This document shows positions 1 through 57,800 of a stretch of 64,000 nt of DNA, in pieces. The notes below the pieces were generated by a model, which was not told the DNA's origin, searched no databases, and worked only from the letters and a program-made list of their open reading frames with translations. The stretch is taken from IMG/VR virus record IMGVR_UViG_3300020473_000017; one strand, 5' to 3'. Both the position numbers and the translations under genes were made by a program. The DNA comes from a virus. Every line of letters begins with the position of its first letter. Position 1 is the stretch's first letter.

Positions 1-109
1 CCACTAGATCATCTATCTGATCATCTTCAATATTAATTTCTAATACAGGAGCACCGTTTTGACGTAAAGCGTAGTCAATCAGTCCCTGCCTTGTGGAAGG
101 AGAAGCCAT
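1..109 (-). CDS. gp13: Neck protein gp13, 5' part (runs off the window)
   Basis: Manual translation from ATG at 109 gives MASPSTRQGLIDYALRQNGAPVLEINIEDDQIDDLV, the typical T4-like gp13 N-terminus. It follows the fibre region, as expected. Confidence 0.9.
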   Translation of the reverse strand, partial: MASPSTRQGLIDYALRQNGAPVLEINIEDDQIDDLV

Positions 110-112
110 GTC

Positions 113-3100
113 TTAAGTTGGGTTAACGTTGAATCTAATTCTCACTAGATATGTAGTATTTGCATCAAGATTAACATTACCAGGTAGTGTGTATGCTACT
201 TTGTTGGTTGAGTTACCAAGAGATTGATGTAGTATAGTTGTAAACTGTGGGTTGTTTACAGGTACTTCTACGTTAGGAGCAAATTGCCAGTCACTAGATG
301 TATGCTGATATCCAGTCTTCATTGCAATAGGATCAACATTAATCGTTGGATTAAATGCTGGTGTTATTACTTGAATGTCTGGTTGATCAACAATTGGAGT
401 TGAGAAATTAGCAGCAGAAGTATATGCACTCTCTAATCCATTATTATCTCTGAATTTAACCTGAACAAAGTATGCTGTATCAAAATCTAAAATTGATACA
501 GGAACAGTAAAGGTTGTTAAGTTACCTGTGTCACCCTGAGCAAACGTTCCACTTGTATCATATACAGTGACGTTATCACTAGTTCTTCTTATCCTCCAGA
601 ATGTAGAATAATGAGTTGACCCTGCATACTCTTGAATGAAAGCAGAAGTAGTAATAACTGGTTGTCTTGAAAGTGTCTTAGTAGTATCAGCATCAACGGT
701 TGGAGTTACAGATACTGGTCCAGATACAAACTCAGATTCATTAACAGTAAGAACTACTGCATCAGAAGTTACTGTAGTTGCCTCAGCATTAGATAGAACA
801 ACTCTGAACTGTTCAGATGGATTTGTTGGGAATACAGTTGCTGGTGATGTATAACTAGAAGCATTAGCTCCATTGATATTAGACCATGATCCACCAGAGT
901 TAACTGAGTTCTGCCACTGATATGAAATTACATCACTTGTAATTGCAGCAGTAATACTAAAGGTTGCGGTCTGTCCTTCAATAACAGATGTATTAACTGG
1001 TTGCTGACTAATAGAAATAACCCTTAGAACAGTTAATAAACCATGATCTGAAGTTATGTCTGCAGCAGATCCAACAAGAGAAACTACACAACGATAACGA
1101 TCTTCATCATCATCGGCATGTACTAATGTTGGTGTTGTATATGTATTGTTAGTTGCACCACCTACAGACGCATAGTTTGAACCATTATCATCAGATCTTT
1201 CCCACTGATATGTTGGTGTTCCACTACTTGATGTTGTAGCAACAGAGAATACTGCAGTTGCCCCTTCATTTGCAGTTGGGTTGGAAGGTTGTGCTGTAAT
1301 AGAGAATGTTCTTTGTACAGTTAAAGTTGCATTATCTGTATACGCAGAAACAGATGCTCCAGTAGCATCTAACTTACAACGATATAAATCTTGGTTATCA
1401 TCAGCATATGTTAATGCAGCAGTTGTGTATGATGCAGATGTTGCTGAACCAATATCACTCCAGTTAGCTCCAGCATCATCTGATTTTTGCCACTGATATG
1501 TTACTGAAGGTTCGTGATGTGATTGACCTTCAAATCCTCCACCTCCTCCTCCAGAAGGAGTTGTAAAGGTTTCTGTATCAAATGATGAACTAGCAGCATT
1601 ACCACCAAAAGGTTGCATAGTAACATCACCCAAGCAAGTGAACGTTGCAGTAGCATTTTCATTGACTGTAGCATCAGATGGATGAGTTGAAACAACTACA
1701 GTTACAGTTTCTACTTGTAATGTAGCAGCATTACTAGGTATGGTTGTTGCACCTGGACATGCAAGTAAACAACGGTATTGATTCTCGTCGTATGTTGTAG
1801 TTAATGTAGGTGTCGTATATGTTGCTGTTGTACCTCCAGATCCTTCAGTAACATCAGACCATGAAGCACCATCAGTAATAGAAACTTGCCACTGGTATGT
1901 TATATCTCCTGCATCACTATCAGATGTAGTTGCAGCTACACCAAATTGTTCTGTACCACCAACTGCACCAGTAGTATTTGTTGGTTGTGCAGTAATACTA
2001 ATTGTTCTTGTTACTAGACTTCTAGCAACAGAAGAAGTTACGTTTGCTGCACCAGCAGCAGATAAAATACAACGATAATAGTCTCCATAGCTATCATCGT
2101 AGGTTGTAGATCCTGTACTATATGTTGTTGAGGTAGCTCCACCTATAGGACTATAACTTACCCCGTCGCCATTCTCTGATTTCTCCCACTGATATGTGAT
2201 AGCAGCAGAATCAAGAGTACTAGCAGCAACAGTAAATGATGCAGCTGCAGGTGCAACTGGAGCTGAATCTACTGGTTGATTACTTATAGTAATAGTACGG
2301 AATACTGTTAGGGTAGCAGCAGTAGTATATGCAGGGACTACAGCAGTAGTTGTATCTAACTTACAACGATACTGATAAGTGTTCTTGGCAAAATCATCAT
2401 CTACTGTTAAGGTATTTGTTGTTGCTCCACTATATCCACCACCATTAGAAACATCAGACCAACCTACACCACCATTACTTGAGAACTGCCATTGGAATGT
2501 AATGGTAGATCCATCAGAACTAATACCCGAAACAGGACCAAACGTAGCAGTACCTCCAGATCCAGCTTCAACTGAAGTATCAGATGGGTGTTGTGTGATT
2601 GTAACTAGAACACCAGTTCCTGTTGTAGTAAAGCTATAAGATTGAGCATTACCAGTAATGTTCTCAGTTACAGTAAAGTTAAATGTGGTATCAATATAAT
2701 CTGAAGTTACAGTACCACTTAAAGCACCTGTTGTTGTACTTAATGCAAGACCAGATGCTCCAATACTATCTCCACTAAGACTATATGATTCTGCAGTTGG
2801 TTCACTAGCAAATGTAGTTCCCGCTAATCCAAGATCTATATTAACACTTGCACCATTAGCAAATGGAGTTCCACTTACTGCACCTGAAGATGCTTGCCAT
2901 GTTACATTAGTATCAATGTATGGGAAGAATATGCCACGCTTCGTTGTGAGAGGAGATGTATTAGCATCATACTTAAAGTCAACACCACTATCTACTGGGA
3001 AATATATGACATTAGTATAAGTTCCTGTACCAGCAGCTTCTTGTACATCAGTTTGAGATCTTAAAGTTGTTTCTGTTAGAATAACTCCATCTGTACCTTC

Positions 3101-16700: not shown

Positions 16701-19700
16701 CAATCCTGAGTAGCAGGTCTAATTGCTTGTAATGCATACTCCCAAGAAGAATCACCACGTAAGAATGTGTAAGAGTTAGATACACCTCTACTTGCTAATC
16801 TCTCTGGGTCAATAGTACCAGCAACAATGTTAGAAGCATCAATGTTAGTTGATGTTAACTGTGTCCAGTTCGCTGCATTAGAAGCAGAAGTATTAATTAC
16901 CCTTGTAAGGTCAACAATTCTCTTTCTAGCAAAGTTACCAGAAGTACTTGCTGAAGCAGCAGAAGTTACTGTATACTGGTTAGCATTAATTAGAGAAATT
17001 GTATAGAAACCATCAGCACCCTGACCACTTGTAAAGTCTAAGAAAACAAGGGATGCGTTTGATAAGTTATGTCCAGTCTCATCAACTGTAATGGTAGTAC
17101 CAGATTGAGAATAAGTACCAGTTCCTTCATTAGCACCAGCACCATCAAGGATAAAGTCACCAGCATCAAACTTGATATTGTTTGCAATGTTGATGTTAAC
17201 TCTACCTTCAATTTGAGCAGCAAGAACTGCATTATTGTTAGTAGGTGAGTTAGGTGCAGTTACAGTTGGCTGTGAGTAGTATCCAGAACCAGGGTTGGTA
17301 ATAGTAACCTTAGTTACGATACCACTTGTTACGTTAGCAGTAGCAGTTGCCTGTGTGCCAGATCCACCAGGTGCAGAAATTGTTAGTGCAAAGTCACCAG
17401 TATAATCCGCACCACCATCAGTGATAACGAAGTTATAAATTTGACCATCATTAAAGGACTGAACAGTACCACGAGCAGTAGTAGAACTACCAGTTAGGAT
17501 AGCACCATTAGTGAATGAGTAATTACTATTCGGTGTGAATGCTAAGAACTGAGATTCTAAGTCATTCTCCAAGATATAGGAGATTGCAGTACCATCAGTT
17601 GTAAACGTATGAGTACCTGTACCCTGACCAGTAAGGTCAATAGCAGTACCATTTGTTGCGTTTGATGATGTAGAAGCAAGTTTAACAGTGTTGTCATCAA
17701 CCTTGATAACAAAGTACTTGGTAGCAGTTGAAAGTCCACCAATCGCTGTTGTTCCCTCAGTATATGTTAATCCATCACCAGTATTTGCACCATGAGCTGT
17801 GATGGTAATCTCTTCAGTACCTGTATTAACTGAAGCAGGAGCAACGCTGAAGTCTACAGCAGTTGTCTCAATAGCAATGTCACCAGCATTTGCGTCTTCA
17901 ATAGCAAGTCTTTCTACCTGAGATGTAACAGAAGTAATATTGAAAGGACGTAAAGCAGGTATCTGATCAATGTTAATCTTACCTGAAGACGTTAACTGAA
18001 CCAGTGCAGATGGAACTGCGTTTGTTGAATATGGCTGGTTGAGGTATGGTCCTAGGTTATTTGAAATATAATCTTTAACTGATGCCTGAGTAGGTAGTAA
18101 ACTATCAGATGCGAATGCACCACCTAAGTTGTCATCATCAGAGAAACCTGTAATCGTGATGTCACCACCAACGATCTTAATGGATGATAGTTCAGAGATA
18201 CTAACAGTACCAACGAAACTAATAGCACCAGTTCTGTTGAAGATAGTAACGAAATTACCAACCTTGAAGTCACCAAATTCGTTAGTACCAGATGTATAAA
18301 CCTGACCGAAGGCTTGTTCTGAAGCTTCGTATGCAGTACCTAAACCAAATCCACCGTTCTGAGGTAGAGCAGCATAGGTGTTACCAGATCCAGAATATTC
18401 CCAAGTATGTGATGAGGAGTTAACAACAGATGGTCTGTGGAATTGGATTGAGCGATTGACTAAGTTACTTAAGTTACCGTTAGCATAACTGTTCCTAGTG
18501 TTAGGAGCTGCTGTATCGGTATAATCCATCGACCTGTTGGTCGTGATCTTAGCAACTACCTGAGTTCCAGGAGCACCACTGACTACTTCTGTTTCAAGAA
18601 TGATATGCTCAACAGCAGGGTCAGTTGGATTACATCCACCAATTCTAATGATATAATCTTCTGTTGGAATATTGGTTAATGTTGTACCAGATACCTGAAT
18701 GACCTGTCTGCCAGATTCAACTTGGTTGTTATCAACATCATTAGTAATACTATCAATGACACCAATGTCAAAGCTGTATGGGTCTTCTCTAAATCCAGTT
18801 GCACGTAGAGAGTACGTACCAAAGTTAGATGCAGAGTTAGTAATAGATGCATATCCACCAGACTGACAAACAACACCATCTTGACAGAAGATAGCGAACA
18901 CAGAAACGACCTGTGTATATCCATCATTAGTGACGTTGTATGCAGTACCACCAAAAGATATAATGGTAAATGCGTTTGCAACCATCGACTTACCTTGTGG
19001 GTCGAACTGTGCAATACTATTACCTTGTGCGTCTAATTTAAGACCTGGACGAGGTACGTTTGGTGTAGCAACCTTAGCACCGTCAATATCACAACCAGAA
19101 CCTCCAAGGAATGATATAACAGAAGAGTTCTGAATGAATGGTGATGCTTCGACTACTGGTAAGTCTAAGAATAGATTGAGTAGTGGGAACTTGTACTTAG
19201 CAGCATCCTGTTCAGTAATAAGAGGATCTGGTTCTGTAATAGTACCACTGTATAAAGTACCACTGGATAAAACGTTATCTAAAATACCCCAGTTGGTAGT
19301 TAGTGCAGATACAACATTAGCACACTCAGGAGCACTTGAATCTATAGTAATAGAACTATTAGAAACAGGAGCAATATTTGAGAAGAAGCCTGGTTCTAAA
19401 TCATTTCTTATTGCTTTGATGCAAAGCTCTTTAGCATATGCAAAGATAGCACGAGTATAATCTACTTCTTGAGTAACATGTGCAATAGCACCACTAGAGA
19501 TATACTTGTTAGCAGATTCAACTATTGAAGAGTTACCAGTGTAACGAAGGTCATACTGAAGTGCTCTAACAATATGAAGAATATCATCTAAACATTGTTG
19601 ATCACCAGGTGAGAATGTTCTAGTTACAGCAGATAAATCACCGTATGAACCATCTGTACCAAGTGCAGTTGTAATTATACCAAAGAATGTATCAATTGCA

Positions 19701-22700
19701 GATACTACATCAGTACATGTTGGTGTTGTGGCACTAGTATCAGTAGCATGAGCTAAACTATCAGTAGCAATTGCTTGCTCAACAATAGAGAATAAAGTAT
19801 CAACAGTTGACTTAGGAGTTGTACATCCACCAGGATCAACTGTAATTGTTAGATCCTTAGATTGACCTACACCATGCCATCCTCTAATATTTACAGTCTC
19901 ATTAGCAATAACTTGTTGAGTAATATCACTTGCAATCTCCATGACTGCACGAGCATAGAACTCCTCACCATCTACGTGAGTGGTTCCAACAAAGTATCCT
20001 GCATGATCGTATACAGCATCGTTACCACCATTAACAAGGTTGTAAGCAACTGCTCTTAGAACATCAGATACATCATCCTTACAATCCTGATTATGATTAG
20101 GGATTGAGAATCTTGCAGCAGCAATTGGATCTGTTATACGAGGATAGGTGTAGTTTCCACCACCCTGAGCACAACTATAAATTATAGAATTAGTTGCAAT
20201 CTTAACTGTAGATCTAGCATGACTAATAGCATCAGCTGCAGCACCTTGATAAGTATGAGTTGTAGTGTTAGTAGAAGGAACTGTATCTAGTACTTGTACA
20301 TCAAATGTGTTCGTAGTAACATTAGAAATAATGACCCACTTGTTAGCAATTGGATCTGTCGAACGTGGATATGCAGTTGTTCCACCGCTACCATGAGTAC
20401 AACTAAAGCTTATTGCACCAACATCAAACTTAACTTTATCACCAACAGCAAATCCATGACCGTTGATAGTAACAGTCATAATACCTGTAGTAGGATCATA
20501 CGCACCACCAGATGCAGTATGTGTTGTAGGAGCTAGTAATTCATTAGATCCGATAGTTAATACTAGATCACCTGTAGCTGGGGTATATGTTGAAGATGAT
20601 GGAATATAATTGTTTATAGTAGAAGAAGTTGATCTCTTAACACCATTAGAAGTTGCACTTACAAATGAGTGTGCATAGTTACCACCAGTGATGACTGAAT
20701 TACCTAGTGCAGACTGATAAGCATGAGTTGTAGTGTTAGATGAGATACCAACATCAACAGTAATTGTAGTTCCTGTTGTTGCTACGATAGGAACTGAAGT
20801 ATTGTGTGACTTATCACGCTTCTGTGTGATTCCACCTGTTGTAGCAGATACAAATGCATGAGCATCTGTATTTGTTGATGGGATTGTAGATAAGACTTGA
20901 ATTTCAAATGTAGTTGAAGTTACATTAAAGATCTTCTGCCATTTTCCAGAAATAGGATCACCTGATCTTGGATATGACTTCTGTGCAGCAGGACCAGAAG
21001 CACCGCCAAATGCACAACTGAATGTAATAGAATTATCAGCAAGTTTAACCCAATCACCGTTTCTCATTCCATGAGAAGCAGTTGTCTCGACATGTACAAT
21101 ACCTGATGATGGGAAGTAGTGAGTACCACCCTTGGTTATAGCACCAGCAGATGTTCCACCCTGCCAAGTATGAATATAATCACCACCACTAGTAATAGCG
21201 TTAGTTGCAGTGAATCCAGGCTTCCATCTATGAGTAGAAGTATCTGAAGCAGTACCAACGTCTAGAGTAATTGTTGTTGCTGTTACAGCAGTAATGTTGA
21301 CCGCTGTATCGTATGCAGGGTCATCTGAGGTTGCTCCACCTTGTCCACTAGCACGAGGATATAAATGATCAGATCCATAGCTATCAGTATTACACTGGAA
21401 GCTAAGAGACTGATTAGCAATCTTAACACTGGTGTTTGCCTTAAGGCTATGAGCACCAATATCTAAAACCATAATACCTGTAGTAGGATCATATGTTGCA
21501 TCAGTTACTGTATGTTGTACTAAAGGAGATTGTCCAACATTTAAAGTAATTGTATCTGAACCTACTGCTTTAACAGGAATAGACTTTCCGTAATATGGGT
21601 CACTTGCTCTTGGATATGTCTTAGTTGAAGTGTTGCCATCCATTGTGCAATTGAAGGACAATGAATCAGGCTTAACGAATACGCTATCGCTAGTTGTTAA
21701 TCCATGACCATTACCAACTGTAAGAACCATATCACCACTGACTGCATTATAAGAAGCACCAGTGACATTGAAATTTGTACCACCAATTGCTGTATGTGAA
21801 TCAACTAATGCTCTTGGATATGCGTGCTCAGTTGATTGACTATCCTCATCACACTTAAATGTGATAGCACCAGTTGTAAGTTTAATATTTTCTTTAACGT
21901 GCTGAAGTCCATTACTAACAGCAGATACAAATGTATGAACATCATCAACTGTTAGTGCTACACCACCAGTACAATCAAACTTAAATGTATTTGTAGTAAC
22001 ACCCCAGATATTGATCCACTTACCAGCAATGGGTTGACCTGCTTTTGGATAAGACTCATTACCACCGCCACCATAAGGGCAACTCATGGTTATAGAACCA
22101 ACAGCAAGATTAATCTTATCTCCTTCTTGGAAACCGTGATCATTAATGGTCACAGTCATAATACCACTATGATTCTCAAGAGTTGCATCCGTTACTGTAT
22201 GAGAGGTAGGAGCCGCAAGGCTATGATTACCTACGGTAATCTCCATAAGACCCGTTGTAGGGGTATATACAGCGTTTGTGGGGGTGAACGTAACAGGTGG
22301 TGTAGTACCTACATTAATATCAAAAGTATCAGTAGTAATGTTAGAAACACTCTTCCAAACATTAAGTGCTGGATCAGTTGATCTAGGATATGTGTGCTTG
22401 GAGAAGTTGTCATCCATTGAGCAAGTAAAGGTCAATGAATCTTGAGCGACCTGTACTTTCTCACCAACTGTGAAACCATGACCAGGAATTGTAAGGGTTA
22501 GTACACCTGTAATTGGTTCGTATGCTGCATTAGTTACTGAATGCTGTGTGAAACCAACATCATTGTATACAACTGCTCTTGTTACAGAATTTGCTGCAGC
22601 ACTTACGAATGTATGTGGAGTAACGTCAGTTTTTGCCTTACCAACATTAACTTTAATATTATTAGCGTCTACCTTAATTACACCAAGATACTTGTTATAG

Positions 22701-25700
22701 AATGGATCTGTTGTACGAGGATACGTCTTATTAGAACCATCATTATCCATCTCACAAGTAAATGTGAGTGAATTAGGTGCAATTAAAATTCTGTCTCCAT
22801 CAACAAATGGGTGACTTGCAATGGTAAGAACCATTTCACCTGTTTGTGGATTATAATCAGCACCAGTTGGTTGGAATTGATATGTGCTTAAACCTTGGAA
22901 TGTATGTGTAGTAGTATTAGTTGGAGTAGTACCATTAAGTGCATTAATAGTAATATCATTTCCATTAACAGCAGTTACAGGAGTTTCAGTAAGACTTGAA
23001 ACAAAACGCTCTACTGCTTCTTCTGAAATGAACTTGTTATTAGTATTAATTAAATTAGCAGCATCCTGAGTTAGGTTAGGTACAGTACCATATGTTGCTC
23101 TATCAAGAGTAATAGTTTCATACTGTTGAGGATGAGTAGTATGTGGATGTCTTAGAATTGGTAGGTTACGAATTACCTTAGCAGCATATCCCTTAGCATT
23201 ATTGAATGCAGTTACATACTTACTCTGATTACTTGTAGTTACATCTTTAAGGAAGTAATTAGCAGCATCATATACTCTGTCATTACCACCCCACTTAAGG
23301 TTGTGATAAAGTGACTTCTTAAGGAAGTCGGAAATATCATCAGTACATGCTGTATTACCAGTAGGAACACTATATCCAGTATCAGCAACCATCTTCTCAA
23401 CAGATAGTTCTGCAATCATTTCAGCATTAGCAGCAAGTAAATCTGCAGCATCTGCTTGCTTATTATTCTCTGGGAAACTATTTGGAGTTCTATATGGTTT
23501 TCTTAAATCAGTGAAAGTACCATCAGTTCCTGTATATGTTGTACCTTCTGCTTCATTTTTACCAGAACTATTAACGCCAAGATCAAGAGTGAAAGTTCTA
23601 TGATCTACAATATCCTTAATAGGCCATGTGCTGTTAAGACTAAATCCATTCGCGAATGCAGCGACACCTTTAATTTCTACACCAGCAGAAGTACCAACAT
23701 TAACTGTAACTGTTCCAGCTGCATCTACTGCTGTAATTGCTAAAGTAGCACCGTATGCAGGGTCAGTTGATCTTGGATAAGTATGGGATGTAGCATGGTT
23801 GTCTCTAGAACATGTAAAGCTTAAAGAACCATTAGCAATGACTAATGTGTCAGAAGTAGTAAAGGTATGAGCACCTATTGATAATACTAGGTCTCCTGAT
23901 ACAGGGTCGTATGTTGCACCTGTTACATTCTTTTGAACACTACCAGCAGTTATTGTAATAGCATTACTTGCTGTACCACCATCATAAATGTGAGCATGAT
24001 TCTTATATCCTCTATAAAGGTTATGTCCTTGATTAACTTTAATAGTGGCAACATCATCACTTACAGCCCATGAAGTAATTGGATGGTCAAACTCCATCCC
24101 CAATGCACTAAATGTAGTAGGTCCAATTACAAGAGTACTATTTCTAGTAGAAGACTTCTCATAATGAGACTTAACATATCCGTATGCTTCTTGTGCAATA
24201 AATTCTTGGTTAGCTCTGATAGATTCAGCACCATCCCTAAAGCGAGCAGTCTGAGAGATCTTGACAAATCCATAAGGAGAGTTCCTTAGAGATGCAAGAA
24301 CATAGTTATTAGTAGAAATAACTGACTGGTTACCAGTTGGATTAAGTTGTGCATCAAATACACTAATAGCAGATCTTACAACAAATTGTAAGGCATAACC
24401 ATCAGCACGTTCAATACGATGCGTAATGTACTTACGTCCATTAAGATCTTCAACGTTATCTAAGACACTAACTGTAGATCCACTAGCAGTTGCAGTATTA
24501 GTTGTTGACTGAATATTTGCTGTCCTAAGTACAAAGGTAACAGTTAAGTTGGAACTATTGTATCTACCATAACCCATACCCAATTCAGTGTTACCAGGTA
24601 AGGATGGAGTACCAGATCCAAGATCAAACTGGTCAATAAGATATGTTTTACTTAATGCTTCAGATCCAGCTCCATCAAAGTTAAACTTAAGACCACATTC
24701 ACCAAGTGACTGCCAGTTAGAGAATAATGCAGTAGTTAAAGTATTATCTACGTTAGCAATAGTAACTGTGACTTCGCCACTTGATAAAGACCAAGATGGG
24801 TTAGTACCTGCACCCCAGTTAATAGCAGAACTTTGGAAACCATATAAGAAAACTTCCTGACCAACTTCATAGTCATGGTAAGAAGTACCTGCTAAAGTGA
24901 AAGTTGGACCATTATATGTCTGTTGTGTAGCTAATGTTGTGTCCAGAGTTGCGATTGATAATAATCTTGTCGCATCTTCAAATCTTTGATATCCTAAACC
25001 TGTACCTGTAAGATCTAAAGTTGTAGGAGCATCATTACCATTAGCATCCTTATTAAGAGCGTTAGCAGCAGTAGCAGCAAATCTTACCCAATCATTATTT
25101 TCTTTGTAGATATAATAAGTTGTACCATCTAGAAGACCACCAATCGCACCCATCTTACTAGCACGATATACAACACCATCTCCAGTTGCATACTGGTGAG
25201 TGAAGATTCTCATATTATTCGATTCTGGCATAATACTACCAGAAGTGAATAGATGGAGACTAGTATCTGGAGATACCGCAGTTATATCCTTTCTACCTGT
25301 AGTTGAAGTAAGTGTAGTAGCATTTAACCAAGTATCAAATAGTTCAATAGTATCAGCATCAACAAACCTTACATAATATACTGTACCATCAATAAGACCA
25401 CCAAGAGCATTAGTGTTCTCATCTTTCTGATAATAAACCTGATCACCACTCTTAAAGCTATGCCCAGTAATTGTTATTCTATCAGTGGTTAGATTAACCT
25501 TAGTAGAATCAGCTGCAAATGCAGTTGTTTCTCTTTCAGAATTAACTGTATGCTGATAAATCTGGTTAGAGATAGTCTCTAATTCAGGTCTTAATGATTC
25601 AGCATCAACAACGTCAAAGCGATCTGATACACTTGGGTTAGTGATATCAGTGATAATATTATTTGCTACAGCATCATAGAATATTTTCTCAGCGTCCTGG

Positions 25701-45852: not shown

Positions 45853-45860
45853 TATTTATA
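45853..45860 (-). promoter_or_regulatory. T4-type late promoter TATAAATA
   Basis: Exact consensus overlapping the gp7 stop, 21 nt before the gp8 ATG. Confidence 0.8.
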
Positions 45861-48800
45861 ATGATCTCAGACGAACTTCTGGAAGAAGTGAGACGTTTCC
45901 GCTTGTGGTGCGCGAGAATGGATATTCAACTGTAAATGTATCTACAGCTGTGACAGTAACTTTATATGCTCCGTCAAATCCATCGCCTGAAGTATGATCT
46001 AGATATATGCTCATACCTGTTGTCAGGTTATGAGCTGCAGAAGTAGTAATTGTAGATACAGTTCCTGAAGAACTATATGTTCCTGTCTGAATGGATATTG
46101 CGAAAGCTGTAGTTCCACCGTATCCTCTACCACCTGTTGCAACTGTAAGAGTGTTAGCAGACGTGTTCTTAGAACCATATAGAATCCTTTCACATGTCCA
46201 TCCTATTACATTACCAGAACTATCTGTTGCAGGATTATAATAAGGAATTAGGACTTCTCCCTCATCAGGGAAACCTATATTCTGACTAACATCAAAGTAT
46301 ATATTCTTACAAGTTAAAGTTGTATCTACAGCAGAAATACTAGAAGCCAAATATGTATTTGCTAATGCAAGAGTATTAGAGATAATTCTATCTCTTGACT
46401 TCCTCTCTATATGTACAGGATGTACAGCAAATACAGTTGGTGGTGTTAAGTATCCAGCACCACCATTTAGATTAACAATAGAGGTTACCGTACCACTTCC
46501 AGATTGAACAACTGTCTCTGCAGAAGCACCTGTTCCACTACCACCTTGGAAATAAAGAATTGGTGGAACTTCATAATTACTACCTCCATCTAATATACTA
46601 ACTGTATCAACCTTTCCATTATTAATTGTACATTCAAAATTAGCAACGGTTGGTCGTAATCCAGTATATTCATAAGTGTCTACAGAAGTTGCACTTGATA
46701 CTGTTGCTAATAGACGATCTTCACCTTCACTCTTAACCATGACTCTATCGTTAGGATCAAGAGAATTGAAAGTATTAGAAATGAATATATCTTCTGCAGA
46801 TCCAACATAAATGTAAAGACTACATGTAGATCCTGCTCTTGGAGCTTCAAAGAATTCAATAATTGATCCGTTTAATTGATATGCAACTCCAGGTTCCTGG
46901 AATACACCATTAAGGAAGATCATTACGTTATTAGCTGGTTCAACAGAACTGTTATCACTCTGTAAGGAGAATGGTTCACTATTCAACGTCATAACAAAAG
47001 TCTTTCTAGCATTATCAAAGAAAGGAGCTATGGTATCAAGTAATTGTAATTTACCAAAGTAGAATCCATAGAAGTCCATACCACTGGTAGGTGCTTCAGT
47101 AAAGGATATTGTACTTCCTGTATATGTGTATGCTTCTGTGCTACCTTTAATCTGAAGAATACTATTCAAGAATATTAAGAAGTTATCAGATGCAGGTAAT
47201 GCATAATTACTACCAGCAACTTTAGCACTGAATATCTTATCAGTTCCATCAAATGCCACAGTACCAACTTCAACTTGGAATTCTGGGTTTGATGAAGATG
47301 TTCTGGTGATTCCAGTTAGATTACCTGCTCCACCAGAAGTGGTTCCAACTGCTTGAGTAACAATTGCAGTTAAAGTAGTAATTGCAGATGCAACATCAGT
47401 ACAATCATTAGTATCATAAGTTGCATTACCACTATCATTAGTAATAGTTAAATCTTTATACTGTGCTCCTTCTGTGTAATGGTTTGTTGTAACTGAGATG
47501 TTACGCATTACCTCGCGAGCAATATCTCTAGCATGATTGAATACTAATACAGTCTGATCTTCTTCACCTTGTAAGTGAACTGTACCAACATAGTATTTCG
47601 CTGCATCGTAAGTAGCATCATTACCACCAAACTCAATATTATTAGCAACAGCCTCAGTAATTAACTTAGTATCACGAATACACTTAACAAAACTAGGAAC
47701 AACGAATGTGCTATTAGTAGCCATCATTCTTCCATAAGCAGTTGTTGCAATAAAGTCTAAGTTTTCACGTATCAATCTACCAGCATCAGCAAGTTTGTCA
47801 TATTCATATCCACCAGATTGTACAAGAGACCTTGTGACACTATTTGCACTGGCACTTACGAACTGATGTGCAAAACCAGTCTTAACAGACCCAGGTGTTG
47901 CATTAACAAACGTATGTGTATGATCACCACCAGACTTAATAGCATTAGTAGTTGCTTGAATGAAGGTATGAGTATAATTACCTCCTGCTATGACGGCTGT
48001 AGCACCTGCTGATACAAAACTATGAGCATACTGATGAGTAATAGCAGAATCTCTATTGTTAGTATTAATCGTGATAACGCCAGTTTGCTTCTTGACGGTA
48101 GCGCGAGTAATAGAGTTACTAACTGCGGAGATAAACGTATGAGCTGTCGTATTAGTTGACGGTACACTGTTTAGAACCTGTATATCGAAAGTGTTGGTTG
48201 TGACATTGTATATCTTAACCCATTGACCGCTAATTGGATCTGTAGAACGAGGATAGTTATGGAATGAAGTATGGAAGTCCTCATTACATGTAAATCTAAA
48301 GGTATCATCATCAATCTTAATTTCATCACCAGCAATGAATCCATGATTATTAATAGTTATAGTGAATACACCTGTAAGAGGATCATAAGCAGCAACAGTA
48401 GGTGTTAACTTACCTTCGGGTACAAATGTATGAGCGTGCTGTCCATTAGGTCCAGCAACACCAACATTGATATCAAACGTATCAGTTGTAACATTTGATA
48501 CAAGCATCCATTCATCATAATTAGGATCTTCTAAAGTTGGATAACTCTTAACTGTTGCATTACTATCCTTATTACATGTGAACTTCAATGCACCTTGATT
48601 GACCTTAATATAATCACCATTAGAGAAACCATGTCCAGCAACTGTTGATGTTAGTACACCTGTACTAGGTACATATACTGCAGCAGTTACAGCATGAGAT
48701 GTATATCCAACACTCTTAATAGGAATTGGTCTATCATATGCCCAATCCTTTTTCTTCTTCAATCCATTACTAACAGCACTATCAAAGGTATGTACTGTTA

Positions 48801-51800
48801 CGTTAGTAGAAGGAATAGAATCTAATACCTGAACCTTAAAGGTTGTATCATCAGCATCCCAAATAGTTAACCATCTACCACTAGCAGGATCAGTTGCTCT
48901 AGGATAAGCATGTGTGCCTCCACCTTGCGTACAAGTGAATACAATAGCACTATCATCAAATTTAACTTGATCACCGTTCACAAAGGCAGCTGCACCCCCT
49001 CCATGAGTAACAGTCATAATACCTGTAGCAGGATCATAATCTGCATCTGTTGGGGTATATGAAATAGTATCAGTTCTAGGATAAGACTGGTTGCTAACAC
49101 CACCATTATCACAACTCATTACAATACCACCATCTGCTAATTTGATGGTATCTCCTTTTCTTTGAACACAATTATCTGAAGCAGAAACAAATGTGTGTGC
49201 TTGACCTGTTGCTCCAGTTGCAACATAGAAATTCAATTGTATTGTATCATTTGTTACAGCAAGTACTTGTAACCATGATCTATAGGCAGGATCCGTTACT
49301 CTTGGATAACTATGATTTCCAGCACCAGCAGTACATGTGAATGTTAATGATTCTTTAGCGATTTGAACATAATCACCTTTATTGATAGTATGACCTTTAA
49401 TTGTTAATGTTGCTACACCTGTAGCAGGATCATAAGCAATATCAGTAGGAGTGAATGTATCATATCCACGGAACTTATGCCCACCAACAGTTAGATCAAG
49501 ATCTCCATTAGCAAGGTTAAGAGCAGCACCTGTTGGTTGATAATTTACAATAGGTGATGTTCCAACATTAACTGTGATTGTTGTTCCAGTTGTAGCAGTG
49601 ATATATTGATTAGTCTTAGCAGCTGGATCTGTTACTCTTGGATAGTTGTGTAAAGTAGCACCCAAACTAGTTAGATTTCCACTAGCAAGAGTACCATCAT
49701 TCTCCATATCACATCTAAACATCAATGAGTTAACATCAATGTTAATGCTATTTCCAACCTCAAGACTATGAGATCCAATAGTTAATTGAAGATCTCCAGT
49801 TGTTGCAGTATAGGTAGCTGCCGTTGGAGTAAATGCAACTTCAGGTGATGCACCAACATCAACGGTAAATGTGTCTGAAGTAACAGACTCGACTCCAATT
49901 ACTGCCTTGGAAGATCTATCACCTGCAGCTGGATATGAATGTCTGGAGAAGTCATCATCCATTGAGCATGTGAATGTCAATGCGTCATCATCAATACTAA
50001 CAAAGCTAGTTGCATAAAGAATGCCATCTGCCAATCCAGAAACGAATGTATGAGTAGTGGTATTAGTACAAGGAGTATCATCCAAACATTGAATATCAAA
50101 TGTATCTGGATTTACTGCTCTGATTGTAATCCACTTACCGCTAATTGGATCTGTTGAACGTGGATAAGCAGTCTGTCCACCACTACCATGAGTACAACTA
50201 AAGGTTATAGCACCATCCTTAAGTTTTACTTTATCTCCTGCTTTAAATCCATGATTATTTACTTCTATTGTAACAATACCAGTGGTTGTATTGAATGATG
50301 CACCAGTTGCAGTATGAGATGTAGCAGCAGTCAATCCATGGTTCTCAACACTCATTGACAAAGCACCTGTAGATGCATTGAATGTAGCTGAGGTCGGTGT
50401 CATTGCCTTCTCTACTGCCTGTCCAATATTAACTTTGAAATTATTTGTAGATACTTCAAATACATTGAGCCAGTTACCTGCAGCAGGATCAGTAGATCTT
50501 GGATATGTGTGATTTGTAGCATATCCATCACGAGAGCACTTAAAGGTTAAACCATCAGCAGCAAACTGAACAAAATCACCATTAGAAAGACCATGAGCAG
50601 TAGCCCAGACTTCCATTATACCAGTAGTAGCATCATAATCACAGTATGATGGTTGATACTGATAAGTTGCTAGTGAATCAAATGTATGTGTAGTAGTATT
50701 TGTAGCAGCAGTACCATTTAATGCATTAACAGTAAACGTAGTAGAAGATATAGCATCAACTGGGACATTCTTACCAGAAATAGGATCTGAAGAACGAGGA
50801 TATGAATGAACACCGCCACCCTGCGTACAAGTGAAGTTCAATGAGTTATTTGAGAACTTAACTGTAGATGTGGCAATGCTTAAACCAGAAGCAACAGCAG
50901 ATACGAATGAATGAGCATCAGTGTTTGTAGAAGGAATTGTATCCAGTACAGTTACATCAAATGTGTTAGTTGTTATGTTTGATACTTCTAACCATCTATC
51001 ACTAGCATAGTCAGTATTACGTGGATAATCCTTTTGTGCAGCAGTACCAGAAGCACCACCAAACGCACAACTTAATTTAAGTGAACCATCAGCAAATTTA
51101 ACCTGATCACCTGCCTTCAATCCATGTGCCACTACAGTAACTGTCATAATACCTGTAGTTGGATTATAATCAGCATCAGTTACAGTTGTAGTTGTAGGAG
51201 CAGTTAAAGTATGCTCTCCAACAGTTAATTCTAGTACACCTGTACTAGGAGTGTATGATGCGGTACTAGGTACATATGAATTAGTTAATGGTTTTCCAAT
51301 TGGACTGATTCCTAAGATATCGTTGTCTGTATATCCGTTACCTGGGTTGTTTAATACTACATTCTTAACACCACCATCAACAACAACTATATCACCAGTA
51401 GCACCAACACCTGTTCCAATCTTATTGAATAATGGAATATTTGCATATGTTCCATCTGCATATCCTGTACCAGCAGTTAACCCATCAGAAGTGTCTCTAA
51501 CAGGACTTAAATTAGTATTAACCTGTACAGTAATGGTAGTAGCAGTTTCTGCTGTAATTGCCAAGGTAGCACCAAATGCTTCATCAGATGGTCTTGGATA
51601 AGCATGTGTACTAGCGTGATTATCAGCAGCACAAGTAAACTTAAGAGAACTATCAGCAATCTGAATAGTATCACTAGTCGTATAACTATGAGATCCAATA
51701 GTTAATTCTAAGAGACCTGTAGCAGGAGTGTATGTAGCATTTGTTACATTCTTCTGTGTGTTACTATCACTTACCACAGTTACAGCATTGGTTGCTGTAC

Positions 51801-54800
51801 CACCAACATAGGTATGAGCAGCACTACCAGACATACCAGTATCTAAAGTCTTAAGTTCATCACCAATCTGATCTAATTGGAAGCTAGAAGTATATGATGC
51901 ACGATCATAGTACATTACCAAAGCACTAGAACCTACTTTAGGTGCAGTAGAGAATGTTATAACATCACTAGCAAAGGTATAGTTATTTGGATTCTGAACA
52001 ATACCATCAATTATAACTAAGAACTGTGATTTAACTGAGGTCTTAGAAATCTTAGTAGTAATTAATGTATTATCAACTCTTGTTGTGAACTGAGTATTAA
52101 CCCCATCAATACCTACTGTAAATTTATTAATAGCAGCAGTAGATCCAACATTAACAGTAAATGTATCATTAGTAGTTGCTGTAATATCTAATATCTTTCC
52201 ACCATGTCCTATTGGATCTGTTGATCTTGGATATGTGTGGTTAGTTGCATTGTTATCCATTAGACAAGTTAATGTCAATGCATCATCAGCAATAGAGATC
52301 TTATTATTAGTATTCAACCCATGTCCAGCACTATGAATCACTAAATTACCATCTGCAGGAGTATATACAACATTTGTTGGGTTAAAGAAACTTCCGTTAT
52401 TTGCTACAATACCATCTGTATTACAAGAAACAAATGTATGTGTACCTACGCTAAGTGAGGATAGTACAACTGTACTACCTCCAAGAGAAGATTTCAAAGA
52501 TATTGTATTAGCATCAATAACATCAACGTAATATACGGTTCCTGTTGTTAATCCACCAATATCACCTCTAAAGGTAACAGTTTGATTCTCAACCAATCCA
52601 TGATTAGTTAATGTAATTCTATTATTACTTAAGTCAACTACACTAGAAGATGCTCCATCAAAGCTAATATCTCTAGATGTAATATCATCAACCTTATATG
52701 AGACACAAGTTAAGATTTTCTGAATATCTAACAACTGTCTACCGAATATTTGAACCTCTGTGGGAACAGCTGCTGTATAATCTGGTTTACCTAGAGCAAA
52801 GTTATTAATGGTTGCCAACTTACCAGTATTCTTAGCAGATGGTTTTGGTGTTACATATGTAAGACCATTAAAGGTTGCACTAATACTATTACTACCAGGA
52901 ACCCACCAATCTGTTGAACTAGTGGTAAGTAAATCAAGAGTAGGTTTACCTCTATAAGATTTCTTAGATGCTTGTGATAATATTTGTGTACCAACAACTT
53001 TAAATCCTGCAGGGTGAGCAGCAAATTTAAGTGGATTCTTCCAATCTCTAATATTAATAGGTGAAGATATCTCATATGAGAATTCTTGGAACCTATTACT
53101 ATCATATAATCTCTGTTCGTTAATATCTAAGAAACCAGTAGTACGTTCCCATTGAGAAGAAGATATACTAATTGGAGAAACTTCAAATACAGCATCTGCT
53201 CTATCAAATGCATGAATCGAACCAAATGATGAAGATTCTTCACCAAATATAGGTTCACCAACTTTAAACTCACCTTCACTAATTTCTACACTAACAACAC
53301 GTCCTGCTGGATCCCAATTCTTAACATATCCAAATGCAGTATATGATGCTGTAGATGCACCCTGATAAACTCTTTCTCCAACTAAGAAAGTTGCAGGTCT
53401 CATATATGCAGTAATAACATCACCAAGATCAGTAGTATCTAATGTGAAGGTTGTTAATCCATTAGCATCTCCAACTGGAGCAGAAGTAAATGTAATTGTT
53501 GTTGGAGTATTAGCAATTGCATTTGCCTCAGATGTTGCTAATTTAACTTGATTATTTGCCAATCCATTTGAACCATTAGCAGCAACAACATAATATGTTG
53601 TATTAATTGCCAATGGAGCTGGGAAAGTACCAACTACCTCATTTAAGGTTACTGCAGTACCTGTTGGCATCTTTGTATTATATGGGAAGTTTAAAGTACT
53701 ATTAGACATTAATGCAACCCAATTATGAGTTACTCTTGCATTTACGACTGGAGCAGATAAGAATCCTCTACCTCCATTCCTAACCTCTACCGATTGTATA
53801 ACTTCATTCTCAACAATCGCTTCTAATTGATAAAGTGACCCACTTCCACCAGTAAGAACAATTGTTGGTTGTGATACAAAATTCTGACCGCCATTAGTAA
53901 CATCAAGGTAATCAATAACTTGAGTTCTTGTTAATTGAAGATTATAGGTTGTATTTAACTCTGGTTTTAGAGTTCTATCATGACTATAGTTAAATGTAAT
54001 ATTATCTCCACCAATCTTTAATATCTTACCTAAATCAGAAGATTTAAGTAATAAAGAAGCACCTTTTCCTGTTTTCTGTGTAATATTAACTACAGGAGCA
54101 TTCTGATATAATGTTCCTCCATCTTCAATATTAATAGAAGAAACACCTTCATTTACAATACTTGAATTAAACTTAGCGTTGATTCCACTACCACCACTAA
54201 CATCTACATTAGGTGCTGATAGATAACCAGATCCAGTGTTAGTTACTGTAATAGCATCAATAGATGCATTTAACACACAATTGGTAATTGCTGGATCAAG
54301 ATGTGTCAGTTTATCAACTGTCACAGTAGCATCATGAGTAACATCAGTACCACCCATTGATGCACCAGAAATTGTAATAACATCACCTAGTGCATATGTA
54401 CTACCACCATCAGTAACAGTAATACTTTCAATAGTTCCTGCACCATTAACAATTACTGTAAACTCAACATTAGTTCCTCCAGTAGGAGCAACACTCTTTT
54501 GAGCAACACCAGTATATGTTCCAGTTGTATAATTGGTACTAGACTGTGTAGTAATTGATACAGTGTTTACTAGTCCATATGTGGGATCATCAAGATCAAT
54601 AGTAGGAGCAGCTCTGTAATTAGATCCTGCTGCAATAATACTAACAGATTCTAATTTACCAACATTTGGACCTGAGCTGGGAATAACGGCCTGGACGTTA
54701 GCATGTATTCCACCTACAGTTGTAACCTTAGCTTCAGCATCAGAACTATAAACCTTACCTCTAGCATTGTTAGATGCCCATGGAGTATACATGATCCACC

Positions 54801-57800
54801 CTCTAGTTGCTGCACTAAAGTTACCAGCTCCATCTTTTAGGTTATTTCGCAGAGGTTGAATTCTCAATATGGAAGTTGTTGGATCCCAATTAATAACTTT
54901 ACCTCTAGCAGTTTGAGCACCTAGAACTGGTTCTGATATAACAATTTCATCTTTAGCAAACGAACCACTACCTAATACTTCAGTTAGAGTTAAATCTACA
55001 AAATCTGGTAAAGTTACATATGCTACTGGAGCACCTGCAGGATTATAACCAGATCCCATGTTAGCAATAGTAACACCAGATACTGAACCAGAAATAGTAG
55101 CAACTGCGGTTGCACCAGATCCAGATCTAGTGGATCCAGTCAATTTTGGAAGAGATGAGTAGTTCCTTCCTGAATCACCAATAGAAATTTTTCCAATACC
55201 GCCTGTTGGGTATATTGAAGTTGTAACATAATTAATGCCACTTGTATACCCACTTTCGGGTTCTTTTCCAACAATATAGGTAAAATTAAGATCAGTTACA
55301 TCTTTTACAATATTTGTGCCAGATAAAGGCTCATTCATTACTGTAAGGTAACTTCCAGCAATAGTTCCTTGAATATCGAAATAATAGAAGATTCCAGGAA
55401 GATCTGTCATCAATATAGTGATAGAAGTCTGTTGACCCGTTTGTGCATTGCTTGTTTCTGCAGATATGTTCTTATAAGTGAAAATATCGGTATTTGCGGG
55501 ATCTAACGTAAATGCAAGTGTTTTTCCAACATTACTTGCATCAGAAGTGTCAAATGTGTAAGAATGCCCGTCAATCAACTCTAACTTAGGTTCTTGGACA
55601 TAAACATCAGCAGAAGTGACTGTAGCGGCAGCTGTAGACCCATGATTGCGTTTTACAGTGAATCTACGAAGAGTTTCCGTTCTAATTACTTCATAATCAG
55701 TTTTATCGTATGTAGATGGAGAAACTCCTGAAATATTAACAGTATCGCCTATTGCAACTTGATGAGCAAGACTTGTATGACATACTGCCTCTCTTAAAGT
55801 CTCAGTTAATGTAATACTAAAACTAGACCCTCCACCGTTACCTAAGTTCTGATCACTAGCAGAAATAGTATCTCCAACATTATATGCAGTACCAAACTCT
55901 GTAATTGTAACTGTAGTAATTGCACCACCAGAAATGACTATAGTTGCCTTTGCATTCCTACCACTATTATTAGTAGTCAATGGAACGTCAGTATAAGTTC
56001 CATTTTCATATCCAGAACCACCAGTGATAGATGACCATCCACCTTGGACTAAATTACCGTCTGTACGAGTTCTTACGTAAGTCCAAGACAATGTACCATC
56101 AGATGCTGTTCCTGATAAGTGAGTAGGAGCATTTCCTGCACCAGAATCAGATGTACCAGCTGCAGCAGCCTTATAAACTCTATTTGCAACATAAACAAGA
56201 TCATTTTTAGCATATGCAGTACTATTAGTCCAAGGACCAATTAACTTCATACTTACTAGGTCAAAATACTCAAAATGGTACTTATTATTGATAATTTTAG
56301 TATTAAGAGATCTTGTAGATGAATTATCAGCAATAGTGATAGTAAGTTGATCATCACCAACCAAATAATGTTTATCTGAAGTTGTTAAGGTTGCAGTAAC
56401 AACATCATCGTCATCTACAGCATAATTGAGAGAAGAAACCGTTGTACCAGTAACTGCAGAGATTGCTGCACTAACACCTTCTCCTCCAGAAGTACTATTA
56501 TCGAATAATAGTCGATCATTGACCTTATAACCAGTACCACCACCTTCTACTAGATATTGATCGATATTAGCAGAAGAATATTGGTTAGTAGAACTAACTG
56601 TTAACGATTCTGCAATTCCACCACGGATTACTGGATAATAACTAAAATATCCAATACCATCTTCAACATATTGAAGAATCTCTCCAGTTTCAAGTGTAAT
56701 GAGAGTTGTAGTGTCTTCTAGTGCCAAAACAAAGTCAACTTTGTTATCAAGTTGCTTTCTCTTAGTGGTTATGTTATCAGTTCCGATATATGGTGCTTTA
56801 TACCTAATTGAGTCTTCTGTAAAGTTTTTCTGAAGACCATTTCCGTCCCAGTTGACTTCATCCGCTTCTGAGTAGAAATTTGGTCCTACAAAATACGGAA
56901 ATTTCGGATTTCCGCTGATTCCATCAATTGTACAGAAATATGCATAAACTCCATCTGGAAATTCTGGAGTTACGCAGAATCTACCGTTATATTGGTCTAA
57001 ACCACCTAATCCCTCTACATATTCATAATCTTCAATAAAGGTGCCCATAGGGTCAGCAAGACCACTTAGAAGAGCATCCCTACTTGTCTTCAATCGGTAG
57101 CTTGTACCAGGTTGACTATATGCATTGTATGGATTCTGGTTTTCGGGATCCTCATACCCATAAGGTCCATATATGGGGTGTCCATCATAAGCCCATCCAA
57201 TAATAGGTGAGTGTTTAGTTGGATTTAACTCTTTCCATGGTGGATTATTAGGATCTGTGTCAGGTTCAATATTATCAGCTAAGTAATATCTAAGATTCTT
57301 AGGATTGTACAAATATCCATACTCTCCACCATATATTCCACTATTCTCACCTTCCATTACTGCACCACTAGATTGGTCAGTCACTTTCCTTGCATTGAAG
57401 GATACTTGACCAACTTCTGTTGCAGTTGCTGATTCGTTAAAGGTTAATTCTGTTAATTTGGTTGTAAATGACGCACCAGTTCCTGGATATACAATACTGA
57501 TGTTTGTATTACCTACAGTATATCCAATTCCTTTGTTAGTTACTACAATACCAGTAACAATGTTCTGTGATAGGTCTACTTGAGCAAATGCAGTAGCACC
57601 AACTCCATCTCCAGTAATAACAACGTCTGGAGCACCAAAATACCCACTACCACCAAAAGTTACGATAGCACTTTCTATCTTTCCATTCAAAATTGATGGA
57701 TAGGCAACAGCACCACTACCAGAGATTAATTTGATGACTGGTTCGTAAGTATACTGTGATCCAGCAGCAGTAATAGTAATATCCTTAAGAGGTCCACGTA

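Follow-up and report, generated by a model that had tools for sequence, protein, structure and literature searches.

Probable circular permutation of a nested beta-barrel module, and the relation of its chain order to insertion sites, in two large structural proteins of an uncultured cyanophage

Two very large virion proteins encoded by a 64,000-nucleotide stretch of viral DNA (IMG/VR record IMGVR_UViG_3300020473_000017; hereafter the window) contain a self-nesting beta-barrel module, here called the YPR module, some copies of which are preceded instead of followed by a His-containing strand. The question raised by this locus is whether those upstream strands belong to the copies that they precede, in which case these copies are circularly permuted, or to neighbouring domains. 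The window represents the structural module of a T4-like cyanophage that is uncultured, and all of its large open reading frames (ORF) were on the minus strand. The span in question, 51510-52440, corresponded to amino acids (aa) 2609-2918 of the first of the two ORFs concerned:

45856-60264, minus strand: gp7 ORF, 4802 aa
13781-27046, minus strand: fibre ORF, 4421 aa

The YPR barrel is likely to be circularly permuted, in at least three chain orders, with chain order tied to the port of insertion. Permutation was well supported for the second gp7 copy, for one fibre copy and for the large fibre block described below.

The module was approximately 100 residues long and was divided by element hidden Markov models (HMM) into five elements, A0, A, B, C and D; copies with one common layout numbered 13 in gp7 and 10 in the fibre. 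A0 was a short strand and A the hairpin YxPxTGxLxLTV..H-G/S-x, A0-A making the opening hairpin. The B element contained GDxVxI..LxFTC and H-x-YPRxTDP, C was the hairpin W.xV..TFxVxV, and D was a His-x-aromatic strand followed by a short second strand (..HTFVSAxxNxI). Among unique instances, the His at the hairpin end was conserved in 90%, the Cys of FTC in 100% and the His of D in 100%, both of the latter values being partly a product of detection, which relies on those residues. The B2 His was conserved in 64% overall, and in at least 90% of the modules that had D in front (D-first modules). Conservation of this His, Cys and His set in each barrel suggests, at the level of sequence, a metal site or a hydrogen-bond centre tying D to the barrel. 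No Pfam model matched the YPR module, a sequence search of the Protein Data Bank (PDB) with it returned no relative, and a literature search found no description of the module or of its permutation.

Two copies with D-like units in front of them were found within the gp7 span, in the following surroundings:

52441..52620, minus strand: simple barrel of gp7 (RITLTNHGL..GGLTTGTVYYV..VLSSLSVGT), aa 2549-2608, directly before HTFVSC (translation)
52387..52440, minus strand: D-unit HTFVSCNTDGIVANNGSF (HTFVSC), aa 2609-2626, 13 bits with the D HMM; ambiguous owner, as lead of copy 1 or as closer of the simple barrel
52144..52386, minus strand: gp7 copy 1, A0-A-B-C, without D after C, aa 2627-2707, YPR at 2678 (element HMMs and translation)
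51901..52125, minus strand: Ig-like sandwich domain separating copies 1 and 2, aa 2714-2788, unchanged in related locus L003
51817-51900, minus strand: linker of 28 aa after the Ig-like domain (gp7 translation)
51751..51816, minus strand: D' unit of gp7 copy 2, HTYVGGTATNAVTVVSDSNTQK (HTYVGG), aa 2817-2838, its His invariant in 47 modules
51514..51750, minus strand: gp7 copy 2, A0-A-B-C, without D after C, aa 2839-2917, YPR at 2889

A third copy of this kind was in the fibre, with an outer simple barrel on both sides of it; strands (E) and predicted local distance difference test (pLDDT) scores are from an AlphaFold2 (AF2) model of fibre 976-1191, numbered from the start of the model:

24017..24085, minus strand: opening hairpin HPITSWAVSDDVATIKVNQGHNL of the outer simple barrel, aa 988-1010 (E13-21, E24-29, pLDDT 80-83)
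23930..23992, minus strand: D' unit HIYDGGTASNAITITAGSVQK (HIYDGG), aa 1019-1039 (E44-46, E51-57, pLDDT 79-94)
23693..23929, minus strand: D-first copy, A0-A-B-C, aa 1040-1118, YPR at 1090; barrel matches range over 46..146
23507..23683, minus strand: returning part of the outer simple barrel (GVEIKGV..WPIKDIVDHRTFTLDLG..GTFTD), aa 1122-1180

Translation of the exact coordinates returned every string that the earlier note had quoted in gp7 and the fibre. That note had described solitary copies with the closing strand placed before the opening strand. The order was as described, each of the three copies (gp7 copy 1, gp7 copy 2 and the fibre copy) having a D-like unit 18-22 residues ahead of its A0, and none of them (0/3) an H-x-F/Y/W unit after the C strand; the word solitary was wrong for the fibre copy, which was an insert. 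The A, B1, B2 and C profiles matched D-first copies too, and gp7 copy 2 was 55% identical to the fibre module, D' unit and linker included.

A scan of IMG/VR with these two D-first modules as queries yielded 52 loci (numbered with L). In the 47 D-first modules aligned (43-97% identical to those of the window) the D' His was invariant, and the GG, TA and NA positions were conserved. Outside the repeat blocks, H.[FYW] occurred at 0.0017 per residue (P = 0.045 per 27-residue stretch); set against its invariance in the 47 modules, this background excluded a chance origin of the upstream His unit.

In many loci the D-first module was within the FTC..YPR loop of a host copy, which then went on to its own YPR, C and D. 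An example of a filled loop was ..ALSFSCTAGS[FAHTYVGG...TITVNVGTAASSG]ATAYPRSTDYISGKWLKV...HTFVSG (L013:10163-10510), the empty-site homologue of that host being copy 2025 of the window fibre (SCAFGGASGPAAQKSYPR, aa 2011-2025, about 20970-21020). In L006 and L007 the D-first module was flanked by a LamG-like domain and a helical unit, and in L007 a module of the copy-1 type (HTFVSGVTNAI..) came right after a helical domain.

Inserted copies were located by A, B1 and B2 profile matches alone, ignoring C and D tokens, and H.[FYW] was then sought on both sides. Inserts in FTC..YPR loops had D upstream only (18 of 18 unique), with hosts retaining their own C and D, and inserts in A-B loops had D downstream only (28 of 28 unique). 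Each inserted copy had exactly one D-unit, before or after; both or none were never seen. The FTC..YPR loop is a third insertion port, always filled D-first. In 47 unique contexts A0 was preceded by the motif HxY/W-x-GG-TAxNA-V/I, which other copies had immediately behind C (e.g., ..PSTNTTVHTYTGGTASNAITRA.. in L048 and ..TITLFVGKANDNTAGAHTWAGGTATNAV.. in L050). All 36 leading 'GGTAxNA' units stood before copies whose hairpin ended in H[STA]x. A rule by which the type of D varies with that of the copy was nevertheless dropped, since immediate D-units belonged almost without exception to the other type, irrespective of the copy.

The automatic element-HMM parse missed many C and D units, and local patterns and counts were used instead. 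Copies, counted as A hairpins, and D-units numbered 13 and 13 in gp7, 1 and 1 and 9 and 9 in the fibre, and 12 and 12 in L003. The 50 complete unique blocks, with 1 to 19 copies each, together contained 482 copies and 480 D-units (r = 0.97), the two numbers being exactly equal in 33. This near one-to-one balance, and the strict rule of one D before or after each inserted copy, are left unexplained if D-units are independent spacer hairpins (a linker or a small beta-stack) owned by no barrel, copies without an adjacent D being simply D-less. D-units do stand alone in runs of two to four (gp7 4081-4147; L009 3319-3372), and PDB barrel matches started about three residues past the D' His, as spacers would allow. 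The invariance of the D' His and the confident strands that AF2 gave to D' in a construct with nothing else to pack on also speak against spacers, which we consider improbable.

The other reading, by which the upstream His strands would be ordinary closers of preceding domains, had been named in the earlier note as the refutation of permutation. Under it, the simple barrel has HTFVSC as its closer, copy 1 is closed by HTYVGG across an Ig-like insert in the C-D loop, and closure of copy 2 comes about 1,200 residues on, with the last unit (HQFVSAS) of a closer run. Trailing closers in reverse order do exist (gp7 4081-4147; fibre 1939-1975 and 2108-2141), the simple barrels of the window end in G.G.HxF strands, and the fibre tandem junction HTFVSAAANSV..QHSVTNAAYEP resembles a D'-A0 junction. 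However, THQYAHSFVS is a single D-unit, by which the gp7 closer run 4081-4147 holds four D-units; these match four open copies (3254, 3444, 3541 and 3728) and leave none for copy 2. Moreover, HTYVGG persists in L003 though copy 1 is gone, D-first modules in FTC..YPR loops, or following a helical or LamG-like domain, lack any upstream partner that D' could close, and no open copy precedes the fibre HIYDGG. Closure of copy 1 by HTYVGG and of copy 2 by HQFVSAS was rejected on the closer count and the comparative contexts, and as a general account of the upstream strands closure of preceding domains is very unlikely.

A block in L009 (aa 3319-3728) had the order D D D A D A A A, right after a helical domain and without a trailing D. 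It was parsed as three leading units, a first copy with an FTC-loop insert that has its own D', and two further copies. There was nothing upstream for the leading D-units to close. The string mirrors the order A A A D D D that is usual, and a standard A A D D block followed in the same ORF 200 residues on (aa 3924-4130).

The third chain order was found in the fibre block, the edges of which were as the earlier note had claimed (start TPVTAVNG...HTFQG, 22892-22984; end ...YPRITDPIA, 20120). The block was between two halves of a helical unit:

22985..23104, minus strand: helical GGND unit 3, first half (ends ..FVSSLTE), aa 1315-1354, matching unit 2 positions 3-26
22892..22984, minus strand: orphan C-D piece that opens the fibre block (TPVTAVNGNDITINAL..HTFQG), aa 1355-1385, kept at the block start in homologues
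20120..20611, minus strand: A [inner copy] B piece at the tail of the fibre block, without C and D, aa 2146-2309, ending YPRITDPIA
19982..20119, minus strand: helical GGND unit 3, second half (AARFSIPNHNQDCKDD..GGNDAVYD), aa 2310-2355, matching unit 2 positions 29-71

Positions 3-26 of the uninterrupted helical unit 2 matched the 40 residues before the block (z 6.9; 0 of 2000 shuffles), and positions 29-71 matched the residues after it (z 19.7). The block of 953 residues thus hangs in a two-residue gap, so that its ends must meet, and the leading C-D and the trailing A..B pieces are therefore two halves of one copy. The fibre block had one A, B, C and D per copy only when the leading piece was assigned to the trailing copy. 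The cut was at the B-C junction, where fibre copy 1743 and gp7 copy 3728 also accept inserts, and the block boundaries were conserved in homologues with interiors about 200 residues shorter.

The fibre D-first copy offered a structural view of the second order. The AF2 model of fibre 976-1191 had a pLDDT of 77.7, and the segments on either side of the module were predicted with confidence (75-83); the returning part of the outer barrel had strands E147-151, E165-173, E176-180 and E196-205 (pLDDT 75-82). Structural matches of this model (VIA) were of two classes, bearing in mind that VIA ranges state the first and last aligned residue only. In the first, ranges were 6..206, with only about 80 residues aligned to single barrels of 80-110 residues; in the second, ranges were 46..146, onto small barrels also matched by the gp7 model. 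The best match of the outer barrel was the phi92 endosialidase (4hiz_A 229-338; Z 7.8, root-mean-square deviation (rmsd) 2.1 A, 81 residues aligned, 20% identity). Six-stranded barrels of the FNR and riboflavin-synthase-like kind matched it with Z 5-6.7, a range counted as common. From this model we infer that the fibre D-first module is an insert within one discontinuous outer simple barrel; if so, its D' start and its C end would be neighbours.

The AF2 model of gp7 2808-2928, made with the 47-row alignment, had a pLDDT of 77.5 and a predicted template modelling score (pTM) of 0.68. The HTY strand of D' was at E10-12 and was followed by a strand at E17-23 (pLDDT 80-88), the construct holding nothing else for D' to pack against. 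VIA matches in the PDB were weak (best Z 6.3) and were small barrels of phage neck proteins, PilZ and MreC, with aligned ranges beginning at residues 10-13; Foldseek returned no PDB match with E < 0.001. Matches in BFVD fell into two groups, one with about 106 aligned columns (TMq 0.76-0.79) and one with about 77-89 columns (rmsd 0.8-2.9 A). The gap between the groups equals the length of the D' unit, as would be expected if the second group consisted of standard-order copies. Sequence grammar, natural insertions and model confidence values together point to D' probably occupying the same barrel slot as D.

The earlier note had further proposed that several permutation points implied adjacent termini, and this drew support from both kinds of site. 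Standard copies fill A-B loops of 2-4 residues, which would place the A0 start near the D end; the loops taken by D-first copies are those between FTC and YPR and, according to the AF2 model, one in a simple barrel, which would place the D' start near the C end. The adjacency is read indirectly, from natural insertions and a predicted model. Its main proposal, circular permutation of the nesting repeat, was supported by the D-first conserved unit, the single D of each inserted copy, the occurrence of the D motif on both sides and the fibre-block ends that must meet.

Several points weigh against permutation as set out here. The cases behind the site rule and the balance come from related phages, and independent events are fewer than the counts. 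Exact balance was missed in 17 of the 50 blocks, probably through detection errors. The likeness of D' to trailing closers was weak (5-7 bits with a closer-only HMM, which missed HIYDGG), the unit being short; such scores come from too short a unit to carry weight, and the motif contexts were used in their place. Every row of the AF2 alignment had D' beside its copy, and AF2 might seat any spare strand in an open slot. As the earlier note had cautioned, HTFVSC may belong just as well to the preceding simple barrel, and if that barrel is counted as a user of D, gp7 is one D short under either reading.

Ownership of HTFVSC by copy 1 or by the preceding simple barrel stood at about even odds, closure of the barrel being a shade the less probable when this strand is taken alone. 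Three other simple barrels of the window ended in G.G.HxF-like strands, with which gp7 ..SSLSVGTHTFVS aligned. For HTFVSC as the lead of copy 1 were its deletion together with that copy in L003 and the HTFVSG module of L007, which had no simple barrel before it. In L003 (gp7 91% identical to that of the window), set against L002 and L004 at gp7 aa about 2605-2714 (window 52100-52450), copy 1 and HTFVS were jointly missing, with a 'TVTC' scar left, and the Ig-like domain, HTYVGG and copy 2 were intact. One HTFVSC strand could also sit between both sheets. L004 and L005 had another copy-1 allele (about 66% identity) between flanks more than 90% identical, a swap that suggests, from the sequences compared, cassette exchange.

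Permutation of the YPR barrel would then operate as follows. In the standard order, A0-A-B-C-D, a copy is used inside the A-B loop of another copy. In the second order, D-A0-A-B-C, the chain is cut in the C-D loop, and the copy sits in the FTC..YPR loop of another copy, within a simple barrel as in the window fibre, or, like gp7 copy 2, in a row of domains unrelated to it. In the third, C-D ... A0-A-B, the cut is in the B-C loop, and through this copy the fibre block of 953 residues is anchored in a loop of the helical unit only two residues long. Each barrel would need exactly one D-unit, which the chain may supply from either side, the His of this unit being as conserved as the Cys of the B strand. 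The cut points coincide with loops that elsewhere take inserted domains.

Regarding origin, tandem junctions aligned full-length to the D-first profile (66-74 bits), which makes an out-of-phase excerpt of an array a simple route to a permuted module. D-first modules probably arose in this way, from D of copy i and A0-C of copy i + 1, and then probably spread among these genes by cassette recombination. The same junctions could be read as a sign that D' is merely a vestige of out-of-phase copying, structurally no longer needed; nevertheless, His, the aromatic residue, GG and TAxNA are retained in modules 43-63% identical, which argues for selection on the unit; a vestige is extremely improbable.

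The chances are evenly split on whether the YPR barrel is, more generally, a multi-port connector, with entry and exit through the A-B, FTC..YPR, B-C and C-D loops or the native termini. If it is, the grammar would allow nesting that recurses to the right (c c c D D D) or to the left (D D D c c c) as well as rotated frames, cassette recombination would let cyanophages freely rebuild branched baseplate and fibre decorations, and these proteins would be a natural test bed for the folding of deeply discontinuous, permuted domains.

Classical natural circular permutations include topologies I and II of C2 domains, saposin and swaposin, and concanavalin A and favin, and a permutation-by-duplication model has been put forward for such cases. 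The YPR orders resemble them in the rotated order of elements, in adjacent old termini joined by a short linker and in a tandem duplicate read out of phase as a plausible origin. In contrast to them, three YPR orders coexist repeatedly within single proteins and correlate with the insertion port, and their cut points coincide with insert-accepting loops. The phi92 barrel (4hiz_A 229-338) is likewise a phage tail-spike barrel and the best structural match of the fibre outer simple barrel, but with Z < 8 it may share just a common arrangement, and the YPR module itself matched it more weakly (Z 5.1). We know of no nesting or permutation in the phi92 barrel.

The Si3 insertion of the cyanobacterial RNA polymerase beta' subunit consists of recursively arranged, discontinuous sandwich-barrel hybrid motif (SBHM) domains, and the paper describing it does not mention permutation (0 occurrences of 'permut'; PMC10895346). 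Si3 and the YPR proteins are alike in being self-nesting and in using small beta domains, all from a single family, that are assembled in part from stretches far apart in the chain; domains of discontinuous segments were seen here in the bracket orders and in the outer barrel of the AF2 model. They differ in protein, setting and module, and the YPR module also occurs in rotated orders and with mirrored recursion. For neither model did the 50 best VIA matches include an RNA polymerase or SBHM chain; the best Z values, 6.3 and 7.8, were with other small barrels.

Studies of permutation and of domain insertion usually treat single cases. In individual virion proteins of viruses abundant in the ocean, the YPR module, with no Pfam model or clear PDB relative, would present three orders and four ports, and would do so dozens of times. 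Cut points at insertion-permissive loops would be direct natural evidence that sites of permutation and of insertion mark the same tolerant places of a fold, and would explain how proteins of 4,000-9,000 residues can carry blocks almost 1,000 residues long on tight loops. Programs for gene calling or domain annotation that assume one chain order will mis-segment such proteins, for which the rule of one His-strand per barrel may serve as a simple parsing aid.

The gp7 ORF had a YHYH domain and a weak match to Pfam Baseplate_wedge (18.4 bits, below the 27-bit cut-off). Its nearest cultured relatives, Prochlorococcus phages P-HM2 and MED4-213, were about 45% identical in the region of the finding, and their counterpart genes are annotated 'gp7 baseplate wedge initiator/subunit'.

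Simple barrels of the pattern ITxxxHGxxxGD..GGLxxGxxYYV..G.G.HxF occurred at 52441-52620, 24983-25510 and 17582-17848. Their sequences suggest a distant kinship with the YPR module; MAFFT put simple-barrel rows onto a YPR copy (gp7 copy 1), not onto the simple barrel. Segments similar to the Ig-like sandwich (KFTVGIDG..VMYYDR) recurred near the C-terminus of gp7. The helical unit, with the signature C.DD...GGND..YD, was found at fibre aa 1196-1275, at 1315-1354 plus 2310-2355, at gp7 aa 4151-4235 (about 47560-47814) and in relatives. At gp7 aa 3518-3541 (about 49640-49712) an FTC..YPR loop was unusually long (RCDMENDGTLASGNLTSLGATLHNYPR) although no domain was inserted in it; such a loop may be what is left of an insertion or may precede one.

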